The notes: generated by a model not told the origin, from the letters alone. DNA of 64,000 nucleotides from an uncultured Myxococcales bacterium (GCA_937975765.1 CALJUR010000121.1:92296-156295), one strand, 5' to 3'; shown: positions 52,383-62,244, counted from the first letter of the stretch. Program-made: numbers and translations.

Positions 52383-52429
52383 CGGGGCCCCCTCGTCAAA
52401 TCACCGGTCGTCCGTCGACCGGCCTCACT

Positions 52430-52505
52430 GGCAGGGCAGGAGGGATTCGAACCCCCAACCCGCGGTTTTGGAGACCGCTGCTCTACCGTTAGAGCTACTG
52501 CCCTG
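52430..52505 (-). tRNA. trnW: tRNA-Trp (anticodon CCA), 3' CCA encoded
   Basis: It forms a cloverleaf: acceptor AGGGCAG/CTGCCCT, anticodon loop CTCCAAA, T-arm GGGGGTTCGAATCCCTC. Confidence 0.85.
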
Positions 52506-52564
52506 TCGAGGCCCGCCCGTTCCCGGGCCGGCCCCGCAATGCCGGCAGCCCGCCACCCCAGGGA

Positions 52565-52747
52565 CTACTTCACTTCCTTGAAGGTGGTGTGCTTGCGCTC
52601 GAACTTGCAGTACTTCTTGATCTCCAGCCGGGCGGTCGTGGTCTTCTTGTTCTTCTCGGTCGCGTAGCGCGCCACGCCCGGGAGACCGCTCTTGCGGCAC
52701 GACTGGCATTCCAGCTGGATGTTGACCCGGTTTTCCTTCTTCGCCAT
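52565..52747 (-). CDS. rpmG: 50S ribosomal protein L33
   Basis: The product reads MAKKENRVNIQLECQSCRKSG...KYCKFERKHTTFKEVK. Confidence 0.9.
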   Translation of the reverse strand: MAKKENRVNIQLECQSCRKSGLPGVARYATEKNKKTTTARLEIKKYCKFERKHTTFKEVK

Positions 52748-52814
52748 CGTTCGTCTCCCGGGGCCCGCGACGCCCTCGCGGTCGCCGCGGACTGCCCGTC
52801 AGGTCAAGAACACG

Positions 52815-54008
<1,194 letters not shown>

Positions 54009-54088
54009 GACCCTTCCTCCTCAGGTTTCCGTCCCAACCAACACGACCGGCCTCTCCGGTCGCCTGACCGGAACCGGGCCTGCTCACC

Positions 54089-54163
54089 GGAGCCTTCGAT
54101 CGGAATCGAACCGATGACCCCGTCCTTACCAAGGACGTGCTCTGCCGACTGAGCTACGAAGGC
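54089..54163 (-). tRNA. tRNA-Thr (anticodon GGT); CCA not fully encoded
   Basis: Acceptor GCCTTCG/CGAAGGC, anticodon loop TTGGTAA, T-loop GGTTCGATTCC. Confidence 0.8.
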
Positions 54164-54188
54164 CTAACTCACGCCCGGCCCTTGCGCA

Positions 54189-54263
54189 GGAGCGGGAAAC
54201 GGGATTCGAACCCGCGACGTCGAGCTTGGAAGGCTCGCGCTCTACCAACTGAGCTATTCCCGC
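54189..54263 (-). tRNA. tRNA-Gly (anticodon TCC)
   Basis: Acceptor GCGGGAA/TTCCCGC, anticodon loop CTTCCAA, T-loop GGTTCGAATCC. Confidence 0.8.
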
Positions 54264-54346
54264 CCGAGTACGGACCCGTCCTTCCCAGGACCGAGTACCG
54301 TGAAATTCAAAGAACCGCGAACCCAGGCACCGCGACAACCGTTCAG

Positions 54347-54429
54347 TGGAGGGGGGAGGATTCGAACCTCCGAAGCCTACTGGCGGCAGATTTACAGTCT
54401 GATCCCTTTGACCACTCGGGAACCCCTCC
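54347..54429 (-). tRNA. tRNA-Tyr (anticodon GTA) with a long variable arm
   Basis: Acceptor GGAGGGG/CCCCTCC, anticodon loop CTGTAAA, long variable stem CGCCAGTAGGCTTCGG. Confidence 0.8.
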
Positions 54430-54456
54430 GCGCCGAAAACGCGCGCCCTCGGCGGG

Positions 54457-54529
54457 AGCTGGCGACGGGAATCGAACCCACAACCGCCTGATTACAAATC
54501 AGGTGCTCTGCCGATTGAGCTACGCCAGC
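54457..54529 (-). tRNA. tRNA-Thr (anticodon TGT)
   Basis: Acceptor GCTGGCG/CGCCAGC, anticodon loop TTTGTAA, T-loop GGTTCGATTCC. Confidence 0.8.
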
Positions 54530-54756
54530 CTGCAAAGAACCAGCCCCTTCAAAGGGCGATTGATTATGGTGGACGAGGGCGATCCTGTCAATCGCTTTTT
54601 TCGTCCGGGCGGCCAGGCCGCGGACGGGGAGGATGCGTCAGAACCGCGCCGTTGTCAAGCCCTGTCTTGCGGCCGGGCGCCTGCCTTTCCCCCGCCGCCT
54701 TGGTACCCGTCCGCCGCGTCGTGTAGACTGGGGCCGTCCCGAAAGAGGAGGGCGCC

Positions 54757-55464
54757 GTGCGCTGGTCGATGCCGTCAACACTGTTCGCGGTGGCCGTTCT
54801 GGCCATCCCCGCCTGCAAGGGGGACAAGAGCCTCTGCGACCGGGTGGAGGACCGGCTGCGCGACTGCGGCCTTCTGTCCGAGGGGCGGTTCGAGTGCCAG
54901 GAGTTCGAGATCGACGAGTGGGACTGCCTGGTGAACTGCGAACTGGACGCGACGTGCGAGGAGATCCGGGCGATCGAGTGCGACGACGAGAAGGTCGCTT
55001 CCGTCACGGAATGCCAGCAGGACTGCATGAAGAGACTGGGGTTCACCTGCAAGGACGGGTCCGAGGTGCTCCTCGGCCTGCAGCGATGCGACGGCGACGA
55101 GGATTGCGACGACGGCTCGGACGAGGCGGACTGCCCGACCTTCCAGTGCAAGGACGGGAAGGCCACGGTGATGCAGTACCAGACCTGCGACTGGCGCGAG
55201 GACTGCGACGACGGCTCGGACGAGGCCGGCTGTCCCGGGTTCGTATGCGCGAACGGCAACCGGGTGACCGCGGACTCGGTCTGCAACGGCCGCCGGGACT
55301 GCCTGGACAACTCGGACGAGGCCGGCTGCCCGGTGTTCACGTGCCGGGACGGCAAGCAGGAGATCTCCGAGGCCCTGCACTGCGACGGCGACGAGGACTG
55401 CGACGACGGCTCGGACGAGGCCGGCTGCCCGCCCGTCGCCGAACTGGTCTGCCCTTCGTCGTAG
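54757..55464 (+). CDS. lipoprotein with four LDL-receptor class A-like (CDGxxDCxDGSDExxC) modules
   Basis: The lipobox is LFAVAVLAIPACKG. Four repeats match the LDLa calcium-cage consensus (CDGDEDCDDGSDEADC, CDWREDCDDGSDEAGC, CNGRRDCLDNSDEAGC, CDGDEDCDDGSDEAGC). The start is a GTG with AGGAGGG 5 nt upstream. Confidence 0.7.
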   Translation: MRWSMPSTLFAVAVLAIPACKGDKSLCDRVEDRLRDCGLLSEGRFECQEFEIDEWDCLVNCELDATCEEIRAIECDDEKVASVTECQQDCMKRLGFTCKDGSEVLLGLQRCDGDEDCDDGSDEADCPTFQCKDGKATVMQYQTCDWREDCDDGSDEAGCPGFVCANGNRVTADSVCNGRRDCLDNSDEAGCPVFTCRDGKQEISEALHCDGDEDCDDGSDEAGCPPVAELVCPSS

Positions 55465-55501: not shown

Positions 55502-56128
55502 CTACGGAAGGCCCAGGTCCATCCGGGCCTCTTCCGAGGCCATCGTGCGGGGATCCCACGGCGGGTCCCAGACCAGCTCGACCGAGGCGTCCTCGACGCC
55601 GACCGCCAGCAGCGCGGCCTGCCGGACGGCCTCGACCAGCCAGGGGCCGACCGGGCACATCGGCGACGTCAGCGTCATCCGGATCGAGGCCTGGCGGCCC
55701 GTCCCGTCCAGTTCGATCCCGTAGATCAGCCCCAGTTCGGCCAGCGACAGGCCCATCTCGGGGTCCATCACCTGCCCGACGTGCTCCCGGACGTCCTCGA
55801 CGCGGGCGGGCGCCGCCGGCCGGGACGCGGCGTCGGCCAGCCGCGCGCGGGCCTCGGGAGTGGCCATGGCCTCGGGGAGCCAGGGCGGGTCCTTCACGAA
55901 CTCCAGCCGGCCATCGTCGAAGCGGCCCGCGGACTCGATCGCCGTCCGGATCGCGGCGATCAGCCGCCGGGCGCGCGGCACCTGCGCCACCCGCACCACC
56001 GCGCAGCGGCCGTCCGGGGTCACGTCGGCGTCGAAGACCAGGCCCAGGTCGGTGATCGAGGCGCCGGTCTCGGGGTCGATCACCTGCGACAGCGCCCGGT
56101 ACAGGGCGTCACGGGGACGGGCTTCCAT
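55502..56128 (-). CDS. tandem DUF59 (MIP18/SufT-like) Fe-S assembly protein
   Basis: There are two DUF59 repeats (ALSQVIDPETGASITDLGLV... and VGQVMDPEMGLSLAELGLIY...TLTSPMCP). It sits at the distal end of the suf operon. Confidence 0.75.
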   Translation of the reverse strand: MEARPRDALYRALSQVIDPETGASITDLGLVFDADVTPDGRCAVVRVAQVPRARRLIAAIRTAIESAGRFDDGRLEFVKDPPWLPEAMATPEARARLADAASRPAAPARVEDVREHVGQVMDPEMGLSLAELGLIYGIELDGTGRQASIRMTLTSPMCPVGPWLVEAVRQAALLAVGVEDASVELVWDPPWDPRTMASEEARMDLGLP

Positions 56129-57860
56129 CGGTTGCCTCCGCGGGGCCCCGGGGCTCCAGGGCCTCCTCCAGGGTGGTCCAGGCCAGCAGGGCGCACTTGA
56201 CCCGGACGGGCAGGTCCTTCACCCCCCGCAGGGCGTTCAGGTCGCCCAGGTCCAGGTCGGCCGGCAGCGGCTCGCCGCGGAACATCGCCTTCACGCCGCG
56301 CAGCAGCCGCCGGGCCTCGTCCAGCGTGCGCCCCCGCAGGCGCTCGGCCAGCATCGATCCCGAGGCGACCGAGATCGAGCAGCCGTGCCCGACGACCTGC
56401 AGGCCCTCGATGCGGCCGTCCTCGGTGTGCAGGCGCAGCGTCACCTCGTCGCCGCACAGGGGATTCTTCCCGTGCCACTCGACCGACGGGCCGTCGATCG
56501 GCTCGCGCCCGGCCGGGTGCAGGTAGTGGTCCAGCACGACCTCCCGGAACAGTTCGTCGTCCGGGGCCGCACCGTGCAGGGAGGCGGCGGAAACGGTCGC
56601 TGGCCCGGGCCGCAGGGAAGACGCGGCGGACCGCGGGGCACGGGCACGGGCGACCTCGGACACCGCGTCGGCCAGCGCCTCGACCTCGGCCTCGGTGTTG
56701 TACAGGTAGAACGACGCCCGGGTGGTCGCCGGCACGCCGTACCGCGCCATCAGCGGCTGGGCGCAGTGGTGGCCGGCCCGGACCGCGATGCCCCTCGCGT
56801 CCAGCGCCTGCGCCACGTCGTGAGGGTGGACGCCGTCCAGCACGAAGGTCGCGACGCCGCCGGTCGCGTCCGGGCCGGGCGGGGGCCCCAGCAGGCGCAG
56901 GCCCGGGATGACCGACAGCCGCTGCCGGGCCAGGGTGCCCAGCCTCAGGTCGTGCCCCGCGATGTCCGGCATCCCCGCCGCGCGCAGGTAGTCGATCGCC
57001 GCCCCCAGCGCCACGGCGCCCGCCACGTCCGGCGTTCCCGCCTCGTACCGCCAGGGCGGGTCGGCCCAGGTCGCGTCGGCCAGCGTCACTTCGCGGATCA
57101 TCTCGCCACCGCCCAGGAACGGGTCCATCTCGTCGTAGCGGTCGGGCCGCACCACCAGCACGCCCGTGCCCGTCGCCCCCAGCATCTTGTGGCCCGAGAA
57201 GGCCAGGAAGTCGGCACCCAGGGCGGCCACGTCGACCGGCAGGTGCGGGACCGCCTGCGCGCCGTCGACCAGCACCGCCGCACCCGCGGCGTGGGCCAGC
57301 CGGGCGATGTCCGCGACCGGGTTGATCGTGCCCAGCACGTTCGACACGTGCGTCACGGCGACCAGCCGGGTCCGGGGAGACAGCAGGCCCTGCAGCGCGT
57401 CGAGGTCCAGCCGCCCGTCGTCCGTCACGGGCACGGCCCGCACCCGGGCCCCGGTGCGCCGGGCCAGCAGGTGCCACGGCACCAGGTTCGAGTGGTGCTC
57501 CATCCCGGTGACCAGAACCTCGTCCCCCGCCTGCACGTTGCGGTCGCCCCAGGCCCGGGCGACCAGGTTGATCGCCTCGGTCGCGTTGCGCACGAACACG
57601 ACTCCGGCCGGCGACGGGGCCGACACGAACGCCGCCACCTTCGTCCGGGCGGCCTCGTACTCGCGCGTGGCGTCCTCGGCCAGGCGGTGGATGCCGCGGT
57701 GAACGTTGGCGTTGGCCGTCTCGTAGTACCGGACCAGCGCGTCCAGCACGGCCCGCGGCTTCTGGGAGGTGGCGGCGCTGTCCAGGTACACCAGCGGCTT
57801 CCCGTTCACCGGCCGCGACAGGATCGGGAAGTCGGCCCGGATGCGCTCGACGTCCAGCAC
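56109..57860 (-). CDS. sufS: SufS cysteine desulfurase fused in frame to a SufU/IscU-like domain
   Basis: The N-terminal ~410 aa is group-II cysteine desulfurase (YLDSAATSQKP, SGHKMLGATG, HHC). After about a 35-aa linker comes SufU (EVVLDHYLHP...NPLCGDEVTL...GHGCSISVASG). No stop or credible internal start separates them. The start is a GTG with GAGGGGG upstream. Confidence 0.7.
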   Translation of the reverse strand: MLDVERIRADFPILSRPVNGKPLVYLDSAATSQKPRAVLDALVRYYETANANVHRGIHRLAEDATREYEAARTKVAAFVSAPSPAGVVFVRNATEAINLVARAWGDRNVQAGDEVLVTGMEHHSNLVPWHLLARRTGARVRAVPVTDDGRLDLDALQGLLSPRTRLVAVTHVSNVLGTINPVADIARLAHAAGAAVLVDGAQAVPHLPVDVAALGADFLAFSGHKMLGATGTGVLVVRPDRYDEMDPFLGGGEMIREVTLADATWADPPWRYEAGTPDVAGAVALGAAIDYLRAAGMPDIAGHDLRLGTLARQRLSVIPGLRLLGPPPGPDATGGVATFVLDGVHPHDVAQALDARGIAVRAGHHCAQPLMARYGVPATTRASFYLYNTEAEVEALADAVSEVARARAPRSAASSLRPGPATVSAASLHGAAPDDELFREVVLDHYLHPAGREPIDGPSVEWHGKNPLCGDEVTLRLHTEDGRIEGLQVVGHGCSISVASGSMLAERLRGRTLDEARRLLRGVKAMFRGEPLPADLDLGDLNALRGVKDLPVRVKCALLAWTTLEEALEPRGPAEATDGSPSP

Positions 57861-57870
57861 GGTCGCCCCC

Positions 57871-58179
57871 TCAGTCCACGGTGACCCACACCCGACCGTC
57901 CCGCACCTCGACCGGGTACGTCGCGACCGGCGCGCAGACCGGCATCCGGGTCGGGCGCCCCGTCGCAAGGTCCAGCGCACCGCCGTGGTGCGGGCACTGC
58001 CACTCCGTGTCGCCGATCCGCGTGCCGCCGAGAAGCGGGCGCTCCTCGTGACTGCACAGCCCGGACGTCGCGTACACGTGGTCCCCGACCCGGACCAGCA
58101 GGACCGGTTCGCCCCCGGCCTCCACCTGCACGCCCTCGCCCCCGGGCAGGTCGCCGATCGCCGCGACGTCGCACCGCAT
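57871..58179 (-). CDS. Rieske [2Fe-2S] ferredoxin-like protein
   Basis: The Rieske motifs are CSHEERPL and CPHHGG. Confidence 0.75.
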   Translation of the reverse strand: MRCDVAAIGDLPGGEGVQVEAGGEPVLLVRVGDHVYATSGLCSHEERPLLGGTRIGDTEWQCPHHGGALDLATGRPTRMPVCAPVATYPVEVRDGRVWVTVD

Positions 58180-58189
58180 CCGCCCCTCC

Positions 58190-59407
58190 TCACGCCTCGC
58201 CGGGGGCCCCGCCCTGCCCGGTCCGCGCGGCGGCCAGTTCCGACCGAAGGCGCTCCCGGGCCCGATCCGCCAGTTCGCCGGACGGCAGCCGCGACGCGAC
58301 CGGCTCGACGAAGCCCTCGACCAGCATCGATTCGGCCTGGTCGCGGGACAGCCCGCGGGTGCGCAGGTAGAACAGCGCCTCCTCGTCCACCGGCGCCACG
58401 GCCGCCCCGTGCGTGCACCGGACGTCGTGGTTCAGGATCTCCAGTTCGGGCAGCACGTCCGCCGCCGCCGTCCGGGACAGCAGCAGCGACCGTGCCTCCT
58501 CGTAGGCCTCCGACCGCGCCGCCCCCTCCCGGATGCGCAGCAGCCCCGTGAAGGCAGACCGCCCCCGGCCCAGCGCGATCGCCCGGTAGTCCACCCGGCT
58601 GCCGGTGTCGCCGGCGGCGTGGTCCGCCACGACCCGGAAGTCCGACCGGGCGCGGCCGCCCGCCAGCGCCAGCACCAGCCCCGCCGATCGCGCGCCCGGC
58701 CGCGACAGCACCGGGGCCGCCTCCGCCTTGACCCGGCCCGCCGGCAGCAGCACGTGGGCGTGGGTCAGGGAGGCGTCGCGCCCGACCTCGTAGGCCGAGC
58801 GGGAGAACAGGGACGTCCCCTTCGCGGCGGTCTCGAACCGGGCGTGCAGCAGCGTCGCGCCGTCTCCCAGCACCGCCTCGGTCACCGTGCTGGCGAATCC
58901 CGATCCGAGGTCCGCGTCCTCCAGCACCGTCGCCTCGGCGCCGGCCCCGATCCACAGCAGCGTCCGGCCGCTCGCGACCGTCCCCGCGGGCGCCTCGGGC
59001 CGGGCCTCCAGCCGGATCGGCCCGGCCAGCCGGACGCCTTCCGGCACCCGGATGACGGTCCCGCCCGCGAACGACGCCAGGTTCAGCGCCAGCAGCGGGT
59101 CGCCGTCCCCGGCCAGCCGGCCCAGGTGCTCCTCCAGCAGGCCCCCCGCGGCCGGCAGGGCCTCCCCGAAGGAAAGGGCCGTCACCCCGGCCCGCCGCGC
59201 CTCGTCCGGCAGTTCGACCCGCACCGGCCACGCCGCGCCCGCCGCCTGCAGGGCCGCCTCGATCCCCCCCGCGGGCAGCAGCGCCGCCGCGTCCGTGAAC
59301 CGGAAGCGGTGCCCCGACCGGTCGGGCAGGGGCATGGAGAGGGCCGCCGCGCGCGCCTGGTCGCGCCGCCGTGCCAGGAACGAAGGTTCGGGGTCGAATC
59401 GGTTCAT
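58190..59407 (-). CDS. sufD: Fe-S cluster assembly protein SufD
   Basis: It has the SufBD C-terminal domain (HAAVAPVDEEALFYLRTRGLSRDQAESMLVEGF). Its 405-aa length is typical of SufD. Confidence 0.85.
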   Translation of the reverse strand: MNRFDPEPSFLARRRDQARAAALSMPLPDRSGHRFRFTDAAALLPAGGIEAALQAAGAAWPVRVELPDEARRAGVTALSFGEALPAAGGLLEEHLGRLAGDGDPLLALNLASFAGGTVIRVPEGVRLAGPIRLEARPEAPAGTVASGRTLLWIGAGAEATVLEDADLGSGFASTVTEAVLGDGATLLHARFETAAKGTSLFSRSAYEVGRDASLTHAHVLLPAGRVKAEAAPVLSRPGARSAGLVLALAGGRARSDFRVVADHAAGDTGSRVDYRAIALGRGRSAFTGLLRIREGAARSEAYEEARSLLLSRTAAADVLPELEILNHDVRCTHGAAVAPVDEEALFYLRTRGLSRDQAESMLVEGFVEPVASRLPSGELADRARERLRSELAAARTGQGGAPGEA

Positions 59408-59416
59408 CGGGTCCCC

Positions 59417-60826
59417 CTATCCGACCGAGCCGGACATCTCCAGCCGGATCAGGCGGTTCAATTCCACCGCGTACTCCATGGGCAGTTCCTTCACGAACGG
59501 TTCGATGAAGCCGTTGACGATGGTCAGCGTCGCCTCCTCCTCCGTCAGCCCGCGGCTGCGCAGGTAGAAGACCTGGTCGTCGCCCACCTTCGAGACCGTG
59601 GCCTCGTGCCCGATCGACGCGTCCTCGCAGGCGATCTCCATCGTCGGATAGGTGTCGGACCGGGACGCCTCGTCCAGCAGCAGCGCATCGCACTTGACGC
59701 TGACCTTCGCCCCGTGTGCGTCCGGGTGCACCTTCACCAGGCCGCGGTACGAGGCCCGGCCCCCGTCCCGGCTGATCGACTTCGAGGTGATCGTGGAGGT
59801 CGTGTCCGGCGCGGCGTGGATCACCTTGGCCCCGGCGTCCTGGTGCTGGCCCGCGCCGGCGAACGCGATGGACAGCACCTCGCCGCGCGCCCGCGGGCCG
59901 ACCAGGTGGATCGCCGGGTACTTCATCGTCAGGCGCGACCCCAGGTTCCCGTCGACCCACTCGACCGTCGCGTCCTCGTGCGCCACGGCCCGCTTGGTGA
60001 CCAGGTTCAGCACGTTCCTCGACCAGTTCTGGATCGTCGTGTACCGGATGCGGGCGCCCTTCATCGCGATCAGTTCGACCACCGCCGCGTGCAGGCTGTC
60101 GGTGCTGTAGGACGGCGCGGTGCAGCCCTCGATGTAGTGCACCGACGAACCCTCGTCCGCCAGGATCAGCGTCCTTTCGAACTGGCCCATGTCGCGCCGG
60201 TTGATGCGGAAGTAGGCCTGCAGCGGGATCTTCACGTGCACGCCCTTCGGCACGTACAGGAAAGTGCCGCCGGACCAGGCCGCCGAGTTCAGCGACGCGA
60301 ACTTGTTGTCGTTCGGGGGGATCACCGTGCCGAAGTACCGGCGGACCAGGTCCGGGTGCTCGCGAAGCCCGGAGTCCATGTCCAGGAAGACCACCCCCTG
60401 CTTCTCGATCTCGTCCTGGATCGAGTGGTAGACGACCTCCGACTCGTACTGCGCCGACACGCCTGCCAGGAACTTCCGCTCGGCCTCGGGGATGCCCAGC
60501 CGCTCGAAGGTGTCCTTGATGCCCTGCGGCACCTCCTCCCAGGTCGTGCCCTGCCGGTCGGCGGGGCGCACGTAGTAGACGATGCGGTCGAAATCGATCC
60601 CGTCCAGGATCTCGCGGTTGCCCCATCGCGGCATCGGCCGCTCCCGGAACATCCGCAGGGCGTCCAGACGAAACTGCAGCATCCAGTCCGGCTCGCCCTT
60701 GATGGCGCTGATCTGCCGGACCACGTCCTCGTCCAGGCCGCGCCGGGTCTGGAACACGCTGCAGTCCTCGTCCGCGAACCCGTACCGGTACTCGCCGACC
60801 AGGTCGTGCGGGTTGCGTGCCTCCAT
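59417..60826 (-). CDS. sufB: Fe-S cluster assembly protein SufB
   Basis: It has the SufB signature [19 protein letters not shown] and C-terminal [13 protein letters not shown]. Confidence 0.9.
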
Positions 60827-60839
60827 CGCGAACCTCCCC

Positions 60840-61637
60840 TCAGGCCCCCGCGGGACCGGACGCGGCCGTCCCCGGCGGGGCGTCCAGCCAGTCGTAGCCC
60901 CTCGACTCCAGTTCGCGGGCCAGTTCGGCCCCCCCCGTCCGGACGATCCGCCCGTCCAGGAAGACGTGGACCACGTGCGGGGTGACGTACTGCAGGATCC
61001 GCTGGTAGTGCGTGACCAGCACCACCGACACGCCGGCCTCGATGGACCGCGCGATGCCGCCCGAGACGGTCTTCAGGGCGTCGATGTCCAGGCCCGAGTC
61101 CGTCTCGTCCAGCAGCGCCAGCGTCGGCTCCAGCAGGCGCAACTGCAGCACCTCCAGGCGCTTCTTCTCGCCGCCCGAGAAGCCGTCGTTCAGGTAGCGC
61201 GACGCGAACGCGTCCGGGATTCCCAGGTCGGCGAAGGCCGCCTGCAGGGTGCGCCGGAACTCCCGGGCCGGCACGTCCCGCCCCTTCACGGATCGCAGGG
61301 CGGTCCTCAGGAACGAGGAAACCGGGACGCCCGGGACCGCCACCGGGTACTGGAAGGCCAGGAACAGCCCGGCGCGCGCCCGCTGGGTCACGTCCATTTC
61401 CAGCAGGTTCCGGCCCAGGAACCGCACCTCGCCCCCCTGCACCTCGTAGGCGGGGTGGCCCATCAGCACGTGGGTCAGGGTGCTCTTGCCCGAACCGTTG
61501 CGGCCCATGATCGCGTGGACCTCGCCGGGCCGTACGACCAGGTCCACGCCCTTCAGGATGGTCTTGCCGCCGGTGCCCGCCCACAGGTCGCGGACCTCCA
61601 GGATCGGGGCCGCGCCTTCCGCCGCCTCGCCGCTCAT
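60840..61637 (-). CDS. sufC: Fe-S cluster assembly ATPase SufC
   Basis: Walker A is GRNGSGKST, the ABC signature is FSGGEKKR, Walker B is [12 protein letters not shown]. The conserved C-terminus is present. Confidence 0.9.
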
Positions 61638-62116
61638 GCCAGTTCCTCCTTCCAGCGTGCCGGGCCCGGGCGTCCGCCGTGGCCCGGCACGCCCGCCTCG
61701 GGCCGTCCCCGGGCCACCAGATCCTCAAGCGTCACCCCGTCCAGCACCCCCGTGACCGCCTCGGTGACCCTCGCCCATACCTGGTGCAGCCCGCACGTCG
61801 CCGCGAACCCGCACCCAGCCCCGCCCGCCGCCATGCAGGGACCCGTCCTGACCGGCGCGCCGGCCAGCGCGGCCAGCGCCTCGCCCAGCGCGATCGACCC
61901 GGGGTCGCGCGCCAGCGCCACGCCGCCCTGGATGCCCCGGGTGCTGCGGACGATCCCGGCCCGCCGCAGCATCGAGACCAGCTTGGCCGCGTACTCGGGC
62001 GACATCCCCTCGGCGCGTGCCACCTCCGGGATCGTGACCGGGCGGCCGCCCTGCCAGGCGATGGCCAGCCGCATCAGGCATCGCAGTCCGTTCTCCTCGG
62101 TGGCGCTGACCTTCAT
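61634..62116 (-). CDS. Rrf2-family transcriptional regulator (IscR/SufR-like)
   Basis: It has a winged helix (LRCLMRLAI...TIPEVARAEGMSPEYAAKLVSMLRRAGIV). It keeps the three-Cys cluster ligands CMAAGGAGCGFAATC. Its stop overlaps the sufC start. Confidence 0.8.
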   Translation of the reverse strand: MKVSATEENGLRCLMRLAIAWQGGRPVTIPEVARAEGMSPEYAAKLVSMLRRAGIVRSTRGIQGGVALARDPGSIALGEALAALAGAPVRTGPCMAAGGAGCGFAATCGLHQVWARVTEAVTGVLDGVTLEDLVARGRPEAGVPGHGGRPGPARWKEELA

Positions 62117-62244
62117 CGCAACCTCCCGCGGCCGAGTCGGCCTTGCCGAACCAACCTGGATATTCAATACCTTTTTGTCAAGTTTTGGACCAGACGCCGG
62201 TCCACGGGTGCGGCAGGCCCGGAAACGGGGGGGGGGCGCAGGGG
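62117..62244 (-). promoter_or_regulatory. putative suf operon promoter/operator region with an AT-rich patch
   Basis: The only AT-rich stretch in about 10 kb (GGATATTCAATACCTTTTTGTCAAGTTTTGG) lies directly upstream of the Rrf2 regulator gene. On the minus strand it contains a TTGACA -35-like hexamer. Confidence 0.3.

Follow-up and report, generated by a model that had tools for sequence, protein, structure and literature searches.

The much-studied SufS-SufU pairs of Bacillus subtilis, Mycobacterium tuberculosis and Staphylococcus aureus (PDB 5xt5 and 8odq) consist of a cysteine desulfurase and a zinc-dependent sulfur acceptor that are separate proteins and meet in a transient complex. Covalently joined forms, named SufSU and SufDSU, are known from the literature on Preaxostyla eukaryotes (Monocercomonoides exilis; PMC6231488). 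Since SufDSU, with its flexible SufS-SufU linker, mobilizes sulfur in Escherichia coli lacking IscS and SufS (bioRxiv 10.1101/2023.03.30.534840), a covalent SufS-SufU link is compatible with function; the same work describes the eukaryotic fusion as unique. Here we analyze a 64,000-nt stretch of DNA from an uncultured Myxococcales bacterium (GCA_937975765.1, CALJUR010000121.1:92296-156295), the whole of which we call the window. In this window, an operon of the SUF pathway for assembling iron-sulfur (Fe-S) clusters (55502-62244, on the minus strand, as are all features below unless stated otherwise) encodes SufS and SufU as a single 583-aa polypeptide. This fusion is a bacterial instance of an already known architecture, set in an otherwise standard housekeeping pathway. 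The literature that we searched contained no paper on a bacterial SufS-SufU fusion.

The gene (56109-57860, GTG start) specifies one protein, as the preliminary description of this locus had stated, and both domains are intact and contiguous, each matching its curated profile over practically the full length and above the cut-off. The N-terminal SufS domain (56646-57860, aa 1-405), a type II cysteine desulfurase dependent on pyridoxal 5'-phosphate (PLP), scores 557 bits against TIGR01979 (cut-off 475), with aa 6-405 covering profile positions 2-400 of 403. After an interdomain linker (56538-56639, about aa 408-441), the SufU domain (56109-56537, aa 442-583, a segment that also takes in a brief C-terminal tail and the stop) scores 135.9 bits against TIGR01994 (cut-off 92.5), with aa 435-568 covering profile positions 2-136 of 137. 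The best solved relative of the SufS domain is B. subtilis SufS (5xt5_A, 1e-131), to which it aligns end to end, the PLP-binding Lys225 (in SGHKM) and catalytic Cys366 (in RAGHHCAQP) falling on the corresponding B. subtilis residues. His347 (in HPHD) is the equivalent of B. subtilis SufS His342, the residue engaged in the swap of zinc ligands with SufU, at a position occupied by Tyr in SufS enzymes that partner SufE (PMC12803347), and by this comparison it marks the SufU-partnering type of SufS. The SufU domain aligns to B. subtilis SufU (5xt5_D) and to Thermus thermophilus 2qq4, and the C-G-D, G-C-S and K-C motifs of 5xt5_D place its predicted zinc ligands at Cys469, Asp471, Cys494 and Cys556. 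Families, catalytic Lys and Cys, the Cys-Asp-Cys-Cys ligand set, the swap His and the adjacent sufS-sufU order are thus all as in the B. subtilis-type systems, and the difference lies in the single chain with its disordered linker of about 34 aa. In an alignment of 23 fusion homologues, which are described below, Lys225, Cys366, His347 and the four zinc ligands are all invariant.

The same residues bear on whether the C-terminal domain might rather be an IscU-like Fe-S scaffold, which would make the fusion a NifS/NifU- or IscS-IscU-style module. The domain does match the general Pfam model NifU_N, and its best PDB match by E value, 2qq4, was deposited as 'IscU'. Against the curated models, however, it passes the SufU equivalog cut-off and falls far under those for NifU (clostridial type) and IscU. 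Cys494 and Cys556 are 62 residues apart, exactly as are Cys66 and Cys128 of B. subtilis SufU, so the SufU-specific insertion is present; in IscU the spacing between the corresponding Cys is about 43 residues. Moreover, the residue before the last Cys is a Lys (Lys555) and not a His, the domain has the Asp ligand and its SufS partner has His347, and what is probably a complete SufBC2D scaffold is encoded alongside. We therefore regard an IscU-like identity as highly improbable and treat the domain as SufU.

Between the two domains the chain is predicted to be unstructured. In an AlphaFold2 monomer model, the per-residue confidence score (pLDDT) drops below 50 at residues 410-443, which corresponds to a disordered stretch between two folded domains, and the SufS part of the model superposes on solved SufS with a Foldseek TM-score of 0.93 (normalized to the target). 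The Foldseek search against the PDB returned SufS chains only, no solved chain spanning both domains. Among the 23 fusion homologues, column conservation is about 0.4 in the linker vs. about 0.8 in its flanks, and the homologous segment varies from 27 to 69 aa, contains low-complexity runs and is always in frame. The natural linker is shortest in P0021, at about 17 aa.

No stop codon separates the two domains in the reading frame of the window, and the linker codons include no ATG, GTG or TTG, which agrees with the earlier claim that the linker holds neither a stop nor a plausible internal start. The codons also matter for a different view of the fused gene, in which free SufU would be released by internal initiation or by proteolysis of the linker and the product would act as a two-protein pair. 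A disordered linker would indeed be open to proteases, older annotations of a similar fusion locus in haloarchaea called a separate 129-aa scaffold protein, and CGG GAG G before Val442 reads as GGGAGG ahead of a GTG. This GTG, the sole one in frame near the junction, lies 2 nt past the GGAGG-like string and within the conserved first helix of SufU, however, so that initiation there would yield a truncated domain. Coupled with the absence of start codons in the linker, and with the fact that keeping a fusion across so deep a clade would be purposeless if the halves worked apart, this makes release of free SufU improbable in our estimation, and the protein probably acts as one tethered chain.

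The preliminary description had left room for the fusion being a frameshift or assembly artefact, with sufS and sufU really separate. The reading frame itself does not settle this. The DNA in this region is 75% G+C, a composition in which stop codons are rare and long open frames arise easily, and the frame containing sufSU stays open for 1505 codons (56109-60626), reaching back in another frame across the regions of the Rieske gene, sufD and sufB. An open frame on its own consequently proves little, and the decisive evidence is whether the fusion is conserved in relatives. We therefore looked at loci in other species, scanning one genome per species and scoring frame and stop codons at 78 loci. 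A single sufSU open reading frame (ORF) occurs at two of them, both in metagenome-assembled genomes of uncultured Myxococcales. At the other 76, sufU is separate, with a stop codon 0-40 nt past the end of the SufS match (mostly about 10-25 nt). Coverage of query residues 1-583 by tblastn was rejected as evidence of fusion, for the frame-and-stop test found adjacent genes at these same 76 loci. In many of the separate pairs the two genes are in one frame, and an error of a single base could there produce the look of a fusion. At 29 of the 76 unfused loci, sufU is in frame with sufS, 30-153 nt past the SufS match end.

A search covering 5.8 billion proteins speaks strongly against such an error. 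The identical 583-aa protein is present in NCBI, ENA and Logan assemblies, and an independently assembled ENA contig carries the exact protein with the same Rieske and DUF59 neighbors. In addition, 22 further clusters from separate metagenomes (567-671 aa, 60-82% identity) each contain Aminotran_5 and NifU_N in one ORF; NCBI names members of this group 'SUF system NifU family Fe-S cluster assembly protein [Myxococcota bacterium]'. These homologues come from differing samples and assemblers (NCBI, JGI, ENA and Logan), and their linkers differ by many indels, all in frame. In a neighbor-joining tree built on the SufS domain alone, from the 23 fusion proteins and 48 of the closest SufS proteins outside that group (almost all without a fusion, two with SufU at the N terminus), the 23 form one clade in 100 of 100 bootstraps. 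Whether orthologues are encoded by two genes was thus examined directly, and the 23 fused clusters in one clade favor a genuine fusion. With independent assemblies, 23 clusters and monophyly all opposing it, we reject the artefact, to which we would give next to no chance. Distribution and tree show a genuine fusion that is fixed in this uncultured Myxococcota lineage and is the product of one ancestral event, retained since. As for how it arose, the in-frame position of sufU at the 29 unfused loci means that one lost stop codon would suffice for fusion, and an origin by single stop-codon loss is plausible.

The gene neighborhood is inherited together with the fusion. At seven further loci the fused gene lies behind Rrf2-sufC-sufB-sufD; five of these have the complete seven-gene operon, four of the five with the same flanking genes. 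The complete operon is present on metagenome contigs from JGI and ENA with homologues at 62-67% identity, and over separate JGI and ENA metagenomes the fused gene and the operon recur in unchanged synteny at 62-81% identity. The same fusion and the same Rieske insertion are hence found in related Myxococcota, which is what the preliminary description had suggested looking for.

In the window, ORFs and profile matches define seven closely spaced genes, all on the minus strand. The first encodes an Rrf2 regulator (61634-62116, 160 aa; PF02082 105 bits, TIGR00738 93.6 bits), followed by the SufC ATPase (60840-61637, 265 aa; TIGR01978 310 bits, cut-off 212.8), the SufB scaffold (59417-60826, 469 aa; TIGR01980 709 bits, cut-off 346) and SufD (58190-59407, 405 aa; PF01458, SUFBD_core, 190 bits), which confirms the regulator-sufC-sufB-sufD order given earlier. 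Then come a Rieske-type [2Fe-2S] ferredoxin (57871-58179, 102 aa; PF00355 55 bits, cut-off 20.3), located between sufD and sufS just as had been described, the SufS-SufU fusion, and a tandem DUF59 (SufT-like) protein (55502-56128, 208 aa) matched by PF01883 in two stretches. The Rrf2 stop and the sufC start overlap as ATGA, the end of sufSU and the start of the DUF59 gene overlap by 20 nt, and the remaining intergenic gaps measure 9-13 nt. Such tight junctions, with the ATGA overlap, point to a single transcription unit. All that the preliminary description said of gene content and arrangement is borne out.

We consider it very probable, from the sequence comparisons taken together, that the locus is a functional, Rrf2-autoregulated SUF operon of an uncultured Myxococcota lineage, in which sufS, on losing its stop codon in an ancestor, was joined to the adjacent sufU and the joined gene was retained. 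Several points weigh against this reading. While SufB and SufC are well over their equivalog cut-offs, SufD reaches only 194 bits against TIGR01981, under the curated cut-off of 222, though its SUFBD_core match is strong. In two fusion-bearing loci, L002 and L088, the Rieske gene is absent, and DUF59 is a single domain in L002 and has no gene in L088, so the Rieske and tandem DUF59 proteins are not obligate partners of the fusion. Finally, a permanent tether might hinder the delivery of sulfur to SufB.

How the fused protein would work can be modeled on the SufS-SufU systems of B. subtilis, M. tuberculosis and S. aureus, from which we infer the catalysis and docking geometry. A SufS dimer, with PLP on Lys225, would convert cysteine to alanine and leave a persulfide on Cys366. 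The tethered SufU would then dock on SufS, of its own protomer or of the partner, where His347 would take the position of Cys469 on the zinc, the ligand swap being patterned on B. subtilis SufS-SufU, and Cys469 thus freed would accept the sulfur. The linker, long, flexible and unconstrained in sequence, would allow loaded SufU to swing to SufB in SufBC2D, and the tether would fix a 1:1 stoichiometry and raise the local concentration of acceptor. The Rieske ferredoxin plausibly gives electrons for the reduction of persulfide or iron, and the tandem DUF59 protein is plausibly a SufT-like late maturation factor. That covalent linkage would hard-wire the persulfide relay, as the preliminary description put it, is a reasonable supposition, for which eukaryotic SufDSU offers a functional precedent. 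There is a small chance that the system goes further, with SufSU as a swinging arm coupling the desulfurase dimer to SufBC2D, the Rieske protein as the long-sought electron donor of SUF, and a lineage maybe related to the source of eukaryotic SufDSU. The SufU-to-SufB step and the source of electrons in SUF are still poorly defined, and a tethered bacterial SufS-SufU could be convenient for trapping transfer complexes structurally. Its assets are a fixed 1:1 stoichiometry, a Rieske partner in most clade members, and relatives both with and without Rieske.

The fusion itself has precedents. The Preaxostyla fusion likewise has SufS followed by SufU, a flexible linker, and conserved metal and persulfide residues; it differs in usually carrying SufD at the N terminus as well as large insertions, whereas the window has a separate SufD, a Rieske gene in between, and is bacterial. 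Among prokaryotes, cultured haloarchaea (Natronosalvus and Saliphagus) have 537-539-aa proteins that combine SufS with NifU_N, named 'SufS family cysteine desulfurase' in RefSeq, and the same SufS-SufU order is seen in other metagenomic 50%-identity clusters (P0121, P0128, P0130, P0137, P0165 and P0260). The reverse order, SufU then SufS, is found in P0030, P0047, P0049, P0058 and P0065, and SufS is fused to SufE in P0132, P0151 and P0230. Falling in separate 50%-identity clusters, these other fusions are probably independent events. Desulfurase-acceptor fusions would arise repeatedly by the loss of a single stop codon, which qualifies the published 'unique' label of the eukaryotic one. P0047 was set aside as a comparable fusion, given its reverse order and a contig on which GcpE and GlnE are each split, which may mean frameshift errors.

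Other SufS proteins surfaced in the same comparisons. For the Natronosalvus and Saliphagus proteins (P0133 and P0270-P0276), RefSeq gives the 537-539-aa fusion and older records a separate 129-131-aa scaffold protein, so start-site annotation is inconsistent. Six proteins of 827-913 aa (P0159, P0177, P0185, P0186, P0194 and P0242) have a C-terminal SufS after about 420-500 extra residues and could be SufD-SufS or other fusions. Among proteins of 600-690 aa, many have the SufS domain at 210-650, and these are probably of the encapsulin-cargo desulfurase type; NF041166 was the top match in the NCBIfam profile scan.

The Rieske protein carries its ligands as C42-S-H44 and C62-P-H-H65, read from the translation, and it stays below the cut-off of every specific NCBIfam equivalog model. 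Its gene is at the same position in L001, L082-85, L087 and L089 of the fusion clade. Elsewhere, Verrucomicrobiota and Kiritimatiellae (L034-36 and L039) and Planctomycetia (L067) have a Rieske gene between sufD and sufS; in Chloroflexota (L016, L038 and L073) and Phycisphaerales (L050) it follows sufU. These clusters similarly link a small Rieske ferredoxin to suf genes; that of the window is a free-standing gene, only 30-44% identical to the Rieske proteins of these others. A published catalogue also lists fusions of Rieske to SufT, in a few genomes (architecture S7, PMC4982691). The literature searched offered no function for suf-linked Rieske proteins. The sufC-sufB order is not confined to the clade either, occurring also in L035 and L038. 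Three traits, namely the order sufC-sufB-sufD, a Rieske gene inside the operon and regulation by Rrf2, are met again in other phyla or in Myxococcus (PMC9973013), and for these the label 'atypical' was too strong.

The double DUF59 reported earlier at the end of the operon stands, since each half passes PF01883 alone (35 and 50 bits, cut-off 23.5). The two share 38% identity, and of the two the N-terminal one is degenerate, lacking the TSPMCP cysteine motif that the C-terminal copy has. Among the loci compared, the full-length tandem protein is seen only in the fusion clade. It scores under the SUF-associated equivalogs, with 121 bits vs. 143.4 for TIGR02945 and 112 vs. 202.6 for TIGR03406 (long SufT), and is SufT-like by domain and operon position only.

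SufB of the window is 67-73% identical to SufB of Chloroflexota (L016 and L038), and about 43% identical to that of most other loci (sufBCD type, Proteobacteria-type). The nearest unfused SufS relatives of the fusion are also from Chloroflexota. The SufB identities suggest that the whole operon is Chloroflexota-like, either through ancient paralogy or through horizontal transfer into the Myxococcota lineage. With SufB and SufS closer to Chloroflexota, the operon type differs from risR-sufBCDSUT of Myxococcus xanthus (PMC9973013), a member of the same phylum in whose operon the order is sufB-sufC-sufD, sufS and sufU are two genes, Rieske is lacking and SufT has one domain. Many Chloroflexota suf clusters have two SufU-like genes, both after sufS or flanking it, in Dehalococcoidia (L012, L033, L043, L044, L046, L048, L049, L059, L063, L064, L068-L072 and L075) and in other Chloroflexota (L016, L038 and L040). 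In the metagenomic proteins P0030, P0049, P0058 and P0065, the upstream SufU copy is joined to SufS, with SufU coming first.

In the Rrf2 protein, the three candidate cluster-binding Cys are Cys94, Cys102 and Cys108, close to Cys92, Cys102 and Cys108 of M. xanthus RisR (PMC9973013), and there is also a His111. The window's regulator is probably an Fe-S-sensing autorepressor resembling RisR. A strict sigma-70 consensus scan found no promoter in front of it, and one was recovered only by aligning the upstream regions of relatives. This putative promoter (62153-62181) consists of a -35 element TTGACA (62176-62181) and a weak -10 element CAGGTT (62153-62158), with 17 nt of spacer between them. In the eight upstream regions aligned, CTTGACA is conserved in all eight, the next A in all but L088 (CTTGACAT), and CA-N3-T occurs 17 nt downstream of the conserved -35.

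The preliminary description had proposed searching 62117-62244 for an IscR/Rrf2 operator, and the outcome is mixed: candidate inverted repeats are present, and the exact RisR motif is absent. One candidate operator, TTGAC-N6-GTATT (62166-62181), overlaps the -35. Degenerate in the window, it is a perfect palindrome, TTGAC-N6-GTCAA, in L087 and L088, and the form TTGAC-N6-GT(C/A)AA is conserved across the clade. In M. xanthus, the suf promoter is overlapped by the RisR site T(t/g)GAC-N7-GTCC(t/a), with half-sites of the TTGAC/GTC type (PMC9973013), and the repeat over the -35 resembles it in half-sites and in promoter overlap. The core GAC-N7-GTC has 29 matches in the window vs. about 40 expected, none of them in the suf promoter. 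A perfect inverted repeat, TGGACC-N7-GGTCCA (62186-62204), lies 4 nt upstream of the -35 and is a possible Rrf2 site. Its half-sites are RisR-like, but the GAC...GTC spacing is 9 and not 7, and a similar repeat is seen only in the closest relative, L001 (GGACC-N7-GGTC). Not being conserved past L001, it could be a chance match, and we did not commit to it as the operator.

In relatives, the operon is flanked upstream by peptidyl-prolyl isomerase (PPIase)/SurA genes, with mfd beyond where the flank reaches that far, and downstream by tuf-rpmG, then secE-nusG where the flank reaches; in L087 the flank ends before tuf-rpmG. This is the usual tuf-rpmG-secE-nusG neighborhood, and its synteny with the suf operon extends over the clade. 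In the window (52429-54530), tuf (52815-54008) is preceded by tRNA genes for Thr(tgt), Tyr, Gly and Thr(ggt) upstream and followed by one for Trp. Convergent to the end of the suf operon is a plus-strand gene (54757-55464) for a 235-aa protein with four low-density lipoprotein (LDL)-receptor class A repeats (PF00057, 80 bits). Its position is taken by a MatE transporter in L082/L083, L084/L085 and L087, and no gene was called there in L089. The LDL-receptor class A domain is unusual in bacteria.

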